NCBI RefSeq assembly: GCF_053078305.1
Contig: NZ_CP166879.1
DNA length: 64,000 nucleotides
Strand: one strand, 5' to 3'
Position numbers and translations under genes: made by a program. Below are positions 43,474 through 44,096 of this stretch, piece after piece (position 1 is the first letter of the stretch; every line of letters starts with the position of its first letter). The notes under the pieces are model-generated. The model did no database searches. It was not told the DNA's origin and saw nothing but the letters and a program-made list of their open reading frames with translations.

Positions 43474-43896
43474 ATGATGAATAGCTCCATTAAATCGTTT
43501 TCCCTGCTGGCGGTTATATTACTGGCTGGCTGTAGCTCACCCGCTTCCCGCATCGCAGATTGCCAGGCGCAGGGCGTCAGCCATGACACCTGTTATCTCG
43601 CAGAACAGCAGCGCCAGACGGCTATTTTAAGTGCTTCCGAAGCGCAGGCATTTAAAAATGCAGAAGCCGCACAACACGCCCAGGCGGCAAAGAAAGCCAT
43701 TTATAAAGGATTTGGCATGACCTTTAGAATGAGCAGTAAAAACTTTGCTTATCTCAATGATTCATTATGTGCAATTGATGAAGACAATAAAGATGCCACT
43801 GTTTATCAGTCAGGTCTGTATAACGTCATTGTTTATCATCACACAGGAAAAGTCGCCTTAATGAAAGAAGGCCAGTTCGTGGGTTATTTAAAATGA
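43474..43896 (+). CDS. Putative lipoprotein
   Basis: 140 aa with signal peptide and lipobox LLAGC (MMNSSIKSFSLLAVILLAGCSS...); directly downstream of the adhesin gene. Confidence 0.6.
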   Translation: MMNSSIKSFSLLAVILLAGCSSPASRIADCQAQGVSHDTCYLAEQQRQTAILSASEAQAFKNAEAAQHAQAAKKAIYKGFGMTFRMSSKNFAYLNDSLCAIDEDNKDATVYQSGLYNVIVYHHTGKVALMKEGQFVGYLK

Positions 43897-44096
43897 AGGA
43901 GCAAAGGAAAATACCCCTGACGCATATTATGATTATCGGTGCGTTTATTTTTGCCTTCTTGCAAGTAGTATTATTAGCCTCCCTGGTTCACGCTGTGAAT
44001 GTTAACAACGAAATCCAGGAAGGCTTATTTCAGTCGGGGCGCATTATGGTAGAAAGTTTGCAGCATATTCTTTCGGTGCAAACGGGGATTAACTGA
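43893..44096 (+). CDS. Small single-TM membrane protein
   Basis: 67 aa; ATGA overlap with the lipoprotein stop; one hydrophobic helix (IMIIGAFIFAFLQVVLLASLV). Confidence 0.4.
   Translation: MKEQRKIPLTHIMIIGAFIFAFLQVVLLASLVHAVNVNNEIQEGLFQSGRIMVESLQHILSVQTGIN

Follow-up and report, generated by a model that had tools for sequence, protein, structure and literature searches.

A lipoprotein and small membrane-protein gene pair linked to headless trimeric autotransporter adhesins in O-island 29 of Escherichia coli and other Enterobacterales

To our knowledge, SadB and TpgA are the only helper proteins known for trimeric autotransporter adhesins (TAAs). SadB is encoded upstream of sadA and enhances surface display of SadA; it is a protein of ∼24 kDa that is retained in the inner membrane (Asp at position +2) and consists of a nine-heptad trimeric coiled coil and an Ig/MATH-like sandwich of ∼100 residues (PMC3953254). 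TpgA, the partner of AtaA in Acinetobacter sp. Tol 5, combines a BamE-like alpha-alpha-beta-beta-beta N-domain with an OmpA-type peptidoglycan-binding C-domain, and its N-domain (TpgA-N) binds stably to the AtaA membrane domain from the periplasmic side, giving an A3B3 complex (PMC12523085). A 2026 survey of TAA neighbours reported only TpgA, SadB, DUF2827 and IalB; a YadA head domain was its condition for inclusion (10.64898/2026.01.22.700529), so headless TAAs of the kind described here would have escaped it. We analysed 64,000 nucleotides (nt) of an Escherichia coli chromosome (contig NZ_CP166879.1, assembly GCF_053078305.1; hereafter the window), in which the segment tesA–ybbO–cnoX–fetBA–qmcA–ybbJ is separated from cueR by an island of four genes: a gene for a protein of 120 amino acids (aa) on the minus strand, a TAA open reading frame (ORF), a gene for a 140-aa lipoprotein and a 67-aa ORF (Table 1). 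The last two (hereafter the pair) are the subject of this study.

An earlier reading made from the sequence alone (hereafter the sequence-only reading) had proposed that the pair could act as a SadB-like biogenesis helper of the adhesin, and the link to the adhesin gene that this implies is borne out. Among 5426 complete E. coli genomes, the pair is present in 1416, the TAA anchor in 1414 and the contiguous junction (probed with the TAA 3′ end, the spacer and the 5′ half of the lipoprotein gene) in 1412, i.e. all three co-occur in the same ∼26% of genomes, and the TAA and lipoprotein genes were not found one without the other. The same association extends across species. Of 31 full-length homologue loci in a set of one-genome-per-species representatives, 15 have a YadA-anchor ORF immediately before them in the same orientation; at a 16th locus such an ORF is 1.9 kb off, and a 17th holds a decayed TAA together with a frameshifted lipoprotein gene. 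TAAs occupy three of the 536 other gene slots (Fisher p 1e-15 on a stricter count of 13, uncorrected for phylogeny). The linked loci belong to Escherichia, Pseudocitrobacter, Enterobacter, Lelliottia, Phytobacter, Rahnella, Ewingella and Yersinia and lie at differing chromosomal sites, almost every clade of the lipoprotein family tree has TAA-linked members, and distances among anchors correlate with those among lipoproteins (Mantel r 0.52, p 0.0002). Wide occurrence without an adjacent autotransporter gene, which the sequence-only reading had counted against a helper role, was found in about half of the species for the lipoprotein alone; the full pair, including the small membrane protein, was accompanied by a TAA every time it was seen. 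Our results strongly support the view that the link between the lipoprotein and adhesin genes is not accidental.

The lipoprotein starts with MMNSSIKSFSLLAVILLAG/C, in which the lipobox L-L-A-G-C20 is followed by Ser at +2 and a further Ser (Cys20-Ser-Ser). With a signal peptide ending in [LVI][ASTVI][GAS]C it qualifies as a bacterial lipoprotein (i.e. an Lgt/LspA substrate), the lipobox Cys is invariant in a 21-sequence alignment, and the 31 homologues with a detected lipobox carry Ser, Thr or Gln at +2 and in no case Asp. The AlphaFold2 model (42-sequence alignment; predicted local distance difference test score, pLDDT, 85) consists of a tether, a helix at residues 23-32, a turn and a long helix at 37-71, followed by a compact eight-strand beta domain at 75-139. 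Both the LLAGC lipobox and the helical N-terminal region noticed earlier are thus confirmed. Cys30 and Cys40 are nearly invariant and sit one on each helix, which suggests a periplasmic disulfide staple of the helical hairpin.

The lipoprotein gene is under purifying selection, with ratios of nonsynonymous to synonymous substitution rates (dN/dS) of 0.03-0.08 among Escherichia alleles. Its homologues, down to ∼35-40% identity, are restricted to Enterobacterales except for matches to the N-terminal module in a few other proteobacteria, and among 1.8 billion representatives they account for 147 clusters at 50% identity. Most relatives in AFDB are labelled just 'Lipoprotein' or 'Uncharacterized', and Pfam, NCBIfam, PHROGs and PADLOC returned no significant family for either the lipoprotein or the 67-aa protein. 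A match to XAC1346, labelled 'secretion chaperone', was rejected at 18 bits against a cut-off of 120; no literature was found on XAC1346. The family is modular: the N-terminal module occurs alone as lipoproteins of ∼70 aa, and the barrel, with the conserved QxAQAAKK linker before it, occurs alone behind ordinary signal peptides. Linkage to TAAs tracks the barrel and not the lipid anchor, and is kept behind a plain signal peptide at loci L060, L067 and L070 (Table 1). Neighbours of the Ail/Lom type, present at L062/63, were looked for at the remaining loci and none were found. At two TAA-less loci (L011, 8832-10656, and L028), the ORF after the lipoprotein gene encodes a secreted Pro/Gln-repeat protein with a His/Gly-rich tail, which resembles the passenger of the L067 TAA without the YadA anchor and may be an anchor-less derivative.

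The 67-aa protein has basic N-terminal residues and a single hydrophobic span (Kyte-Doolittle 2.65 over residues 14-32). It is predicted from its sequence to be a bitopic inner-membrane protein with its N terminus inside, a transmembrane (TM) segment at ∼11-33 and a periplasmic amphipathic C-terminal helix; by signals and topology, both products of the pair are extracytoplasmic. The earlier description of a single-TM protein translationally coupled to the lipoprotein holds, and the 4-nt overlap of the two genes is kept in every homologue of the small protein. These homologues occur in Escherichia, Shigella, Pseudocitrobacter (L002 and L006) and a metagenomic relative (L060), and share the motif L-V-H-A-V/I…N…Q…F/Y-Q-S. 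The small ORF, too, is under purifying selection: among Escherichia alleles its dN/dS is 0.15-0.37, with nearly all replacements in the short cytoplasmic tail. Low dN/dS, the existence of homologues and the retained overlap together confirm that the lipoprotein and 67-aa ORFs are genuine genes and not chance occurrences. In Rahnella, Serratia and one metagenome-assembled genome (L012, L016, L017, L021 and L024), a different conserved ORF of 70-81 aa is coupled to the lipoprotein gene; it has no signal peptide, TM span or Pfam match and looks soluble. In the same position, Pantoea conspicua (L023) encodes a protein of 69 aa whose TM segment is C-terminal.

It appears highly improbable that the pair is a mobile-element cassette for toxin/immunity (the possibility left standing by the sequence-only reading), entry exclusion or spanin-like lysis. 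Both proteins are small, a lipoprotein next to a bitopic protein superficially recalls o- and i-spanins, and some relatives (L002, L062 and L070) have recombinases or prophage remnants nearby. However, PADLOC gave no matches, the sole PHROG match ('Rz-like', E 0.033) covers the signal peptide alone, tblastn against 50,697 phage records found nothing, neither protein contains a toxin-like domain, spanins differ from the pair in gene order and sizes, and the genes combine strong purifying selection with a fixed position in the E. coli chromosome; the earlier toxin/immunity idea hence finds no support in defence-system or phage records. A phage origin was rejected on the same phage search; matches on plasmids are few, mostly chromid-like and without a TAA.

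The large ORF upstream of the pair is a headless TAA. Its sole significant Pfam domain is YadA_anchor at 535-594 (E 4.8e-11), Pfam found no head or neck domains, and a Sec signal peptide (MNTVKLSLLAVVVATAVSPSAFA/GD) precedes the body, so that it carries both features that define a trimeric autotransporter (i.e. a C-terminal YadA-type membrane anchor and a signal peptide). The body is a coiled coil with a 369-bp tandem duplication, 94% identical, at 41901-42569. TAA length ranges among E. coli strains between 338 aa (O157:H7) and 600 aa, whereas the anchor and the pair stay conserved: DNA identity is mostly 95-99% in the pair and mostly 90-95% in the anchor, and the stalk is highly polymorphic. 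Insertion sequences interrupt the TAA gene of some strains (H3-H8). In a 99%-identical strain (L001, 6787-8589 of NZ_CP135595.1), RefSeq annotates the C-terminal 350 aa only although the 600-aa ORF is intact, which looks like a start-site mis-annotation of a repetitive gene. Yersiniaceae TAA ORFs carry a conserved in-frame extension of 35-45 aa ahead of the signal-peptide core (e.g. ERNTQIIAAYIAGNTNKIELAHYFGVSASTIRRVL; Table 1), which has many weak matches to helix-turn-helix (HTH) families (E 0.016-0.9) and could represent an HTH-like pre-sequence or, alternatively, a novel type of extended signal peptide.

The adhesin gene does precede the pair as first described, with a gap of 85 nt rather than 86. 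In this spacer, promoter and terminator scans gave counts at shuffle level and a fold z-score of 0.05, the sole structural signal seen being a weak 5-bp hairpin followed by U4 at about 43415-43436. Spacers measure -38 to 201 nt in 16 of the 18 TAA-linked loci. Short spacers without strong terminator or promoter signals fit an operon and make co-transcription of the TAA and lipoprotein genes plausible. At its other end, the pair stops 3 nt short of the convergent cueR stop. Homologues of the 120-aa gene lie divergently upstream of the TAA in at least 13 loci, and its AlphaFold2 model (pLDDT 87.8) best matches the HTH domains of HigA2, P2 C, Aca2, MqsA and C.Esp1396I; on this modelling, an XRE-type regulator is the best explanation of the gene. 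The pair is best explained as the last two members of a conserved adhesin module of four genes, which encode, besides the lipoprotein and the micro-membrane protein, an XRE-type regulator and a headless YadA-anchor adhesin.

The module has further neighbours in the window (Table 1). An Rfam scan found only REP/naRNA4 elements, at the island border on the ybbJ side. On the other side, cueR is sandwiched between two adhesin islands, the second of which comprises type I secretion genes and a giant BapA/SiiE-like repeat adhesin ORF; the type I secretion operon may read through into cueR. At six other loci (L006, L021, L031, L060, L067 and L071), the module or its remnants lie beside qmcA-ybbJ(NfeD)-cueR, but upstream of qmcA. 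The recurrence of this neighbourhood in several genera reflects either an old residence or a recurrent insertion hotspot.

Table 1. Coordinates of features in the window, and arrangements at related loci (positions following a locus label belong to that locus).
Feature	Position	Strand	Remarks
Two REP-type palindromic units	40692-40837		ybbJ-side island border
naRNA4 (Rfam)	40747-40824		60.4 bits
120-aa gene (z0640 counterpart)	40875-41237	-	divergent from TAA gene
TAA ORF, 594-600 aa	41586/41604-43388	+	mechanical ORF from TTG 41586; likely start ATG 41604
TAA–lipoprotein spacer, 85 nt	43389-43473	+	no consensus promoter
Lipoprotein gene, 140 aa	43474-43896	+	lipobox ORF; z0638 primer arms flank exactly its coding sequence
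Small membrane-protein gene, 67 aa	43893-44096	+	ATG overlaps lipoprotein TGA (ATGA, 4 nt)
cueR	44100-44507	-	4-nt overlap with stop of HlyD-type adaptor gene
HlyD-type adaptor gene	44504-45679		preceded by type I secretion ABC gene
Type I secretion ABC gene	45676-47838
Giant BapA/SiiE-like repeat adhesin ORF	47842-63981		>5379 aa
L060			regulator, TAA, barrel, 64-aa TM protein, then qmcA-ybbJ-cueR
L067			TAA then barrel
L070			TAA about 1.1 kb upstream of barrel gene
L071			N-module gene and barrel gene (split) upstream of collagen-repeat TAA
L062/63			N-module gene and barrel gene behind Ail/Lom-type outer-membrane barrel, prophage remnant
Yersiniaceae extended TAA ORFs	L012 6734-7939; L016 6153-7925; L017 5750-7936; L027 6085-7869; L018 6989-7861

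The closest known locus is that of genes z0638-z0640 of enterohaemorrhagic E. coli O157:H7 (OI-29 / S-loop 43). The deletion-primer arms published for these genes (Yang et al. 2018 Table S2, PMC5826968) map exactly onto the O157:H7 copy (L058), and all except gmrA_R also map onto the window: one gmrA arm lies at 43389-43426, the z0640 arms fall on the 120-aa gene and the z0638 arms on the lipoprotein gene. In O157:H7, both gmrA arms flank the YadA coding sequence. The island is therefore O-island 29 (OI-29; 2,643 bp in EDL933), z0638 is the lipoprotein gene, z0639 ('gmrA') the YadA-anchor gene and z0640 the divergent 120-aa gene, and the published 'transcriptional activator GmrA' is the TAA. 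In strain Sakai, z0639 corresponds to ECs0548, annotated as 'Saa-like protein', and the 67-aa gene is unannotated in EDL933. That GmrA is an outer-membrane adhesin changes the interpretation of the OI-29 motility phenotype. The lipoprotein and small-protein genes were already known as hypothetical genes of OI-29; their association with a TAA appears to be undescribed.

The published mutants bear on a sensing relay, in which the pair would pass the state of the adhesin inwards. Such a relay would agree with the placing, by topology, of one partner in each membrane, the coupled translation, the conserved divergent HTH gene and the effect of the TAA gene on flagellar expression (PMC5826968). Yet neither motility nor fliC was affected by deletion of z0640 or of z0638 (PMC5826968), a cytoplasmic part of only ∼10 residues offers the small protein no obvious signalling surface, most lineages lack this protein, and no similarity to RcsF or NlpE was found. 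We consider a relay quite improbable.

We tentatively propose instead, by analogy and as a possibility that falls somewhat short of probable, that the lipoprotein family comprises new TAA-associated periplasmic accessory proteins, TpgA-like in position and concept. The lipoprotein would be exported, lipidated on Cys20 and, as the +2 rule predicts in the absence of Asp, sorted to the inner leaflet of the outer membrane, where a disulfide-stapled hairpin would be followed by a 65-residue eight-strand beta-barrel facing the periplasm. In Escherichia, the 67-aa protein would be anchored in the inner membrane and dock to the lipoprotein via its C-terminal helix, on the periplasmic side; since coupled translation would produce the two proteins in step, they probably form a complex. 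The barrel would engage the 12-strand anchor of the adhesin at its periplasmic face, or else a secretion intermediate of the adhesin, and such binding would favour or stabilize assembly and retention of the adhesin, as TpgA does for AtaA and, comparably, SadB for SadA.

Several observations weigh against this accessory role. In 14 of the 31 species-level loci, including one whole clade, the lipoprotein gene is intact with no TAA within 8 kb, and the same is true of several plasmid or chromid copies and some barrel-only copies, so the lipoprotein does not need a neighbouring adhesin in order to persist. In Serratia silvae, the regulator, lipoprotein and small ORF remain at the qmcA site without a TAA. 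The small partner is lineage-specific, unrelated small ORFs filling its slot in Yersiniaceae and Pantoea, and comparisons of sequence and fold gave no connection to SadB or TpgA. In O157:H7, deletion of z0638, which by primer mapping also removes the ATG of the 67-aa ORF, left motility and fliC/motA expression unchanged, whereas deletion of the TAA gene changed them (PMC5826968). The TAA gene alone complemented the OI-29 deletion and raised motility in K-12, a strain without the pair, and the OI-29 deletion caused no adherence defect on HeLa or Caco-2 cells (PMC5826968). The intact TAA-less copies would also suit a stand-alone envelope lipoprotein, for example an MliC/PliC/ACP-like binder or inhibitor of an external enzyme, or a stress lipoprotein, that merely shares an old island with the adhesin. 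We regard this as rather unlikely. The SxSGAxY and TKG motifs of MliC, PliC and ACP are not conserved in the lipoprotein, and MliC genes are not TAA-linked. Homology to MliC/PliC was also rejected directly, with an hhalign probability of 0.9% on a three-sequence alignment and no PF09864 match.

If the lipoprotein is indeed an accessory protein, an orphan O-island gene would gain a function, and a third family, unrelated to SadB and TpgA, would broaden current views of how type Vc adhesins are put together or kept in the envelope. The family accompanies headless TAAs in one in four E. coli genomes, among them those of O157:H7 and of uropathogenic, neonatal meningitis-associated and avian pathogenic strains. 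A bolder version, which we treat as speculative and unlikely, is that the barrel family represents a third, hitherto unrecognized class of TAA-dedicated envelope partners, serving headless coiled-coil adhesins of Enterobacterales, with the Escherichia micro-protein as a trans-periplasmic tether. Such a tether would couple assembly or state of the adhesin to the inner membrane and could underlie the 'gmrA' effect on flagellar expression.

Compared with known systems, the N-terminal ∼60 residues of the lipoprotein recall TraV, an outer-membrane lipoprotein of F-type conjugation, in having a lipobox followed by a two-cysteine helical segment. The window protein and nine of ten other members match TIGR02747 (TraV) over residues ∼1-65, at 15-26 bits against a cut-off of 44.75. 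These scores are below the cut-off for membership, no conjugation or type IV secretion genes lie nearby and the C-terminal domain differs.

SadB is likewise an enterobacterial periplasmic lipoprotein that adjoins a TAA gene and has an N-terminal helical part and a C-terminal all-beta domain, and these likenesses would speak for a divergent SadB/YajI homologue, i.e. an inner-membrane trimeric coiled-coil lipoprotein aiding adhesin trimerization. By contrast, the present lipoprotein has 140 aa, Ser rather than Asp at +2, and a hairpin with a small eight-strand barrel in place of the nine-heptad coiled coil and Ig/MATH-like sandwich, and its gene lies downstream of the TAA gene, the upstream order of sadB being found only in the split-gene relative L071. 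With SadB (4C47) and YajI (2JWY) among all PDB chains, neither was matched at E ≤ 10 by phmmer or family-profile hmmsearch, the best matches being unrelated (E 0.35-0.73). Homology to SadB is thus effectively refuted, and this half of the helper proposal made from the sequence alone fails in sequence, fold, signal and position.

With TpgA, the lipoprotein shares the nature of a small periplasmic protein whose gene lies directly downstream of that of a TAA. It differs in fold, has no Pfam or NCBIfam match to BamE/SmpA_OmlA or OmpA_C, lacks a peptidoglycan-binding module and has an extra inner-membrane partner. Judged from sequences and models, the lipoprotein thus departs from TpgA and SadB in their testable family features and resembles both in position and concept, sharing with TpgA the place directly downstream of its adhesin gene.
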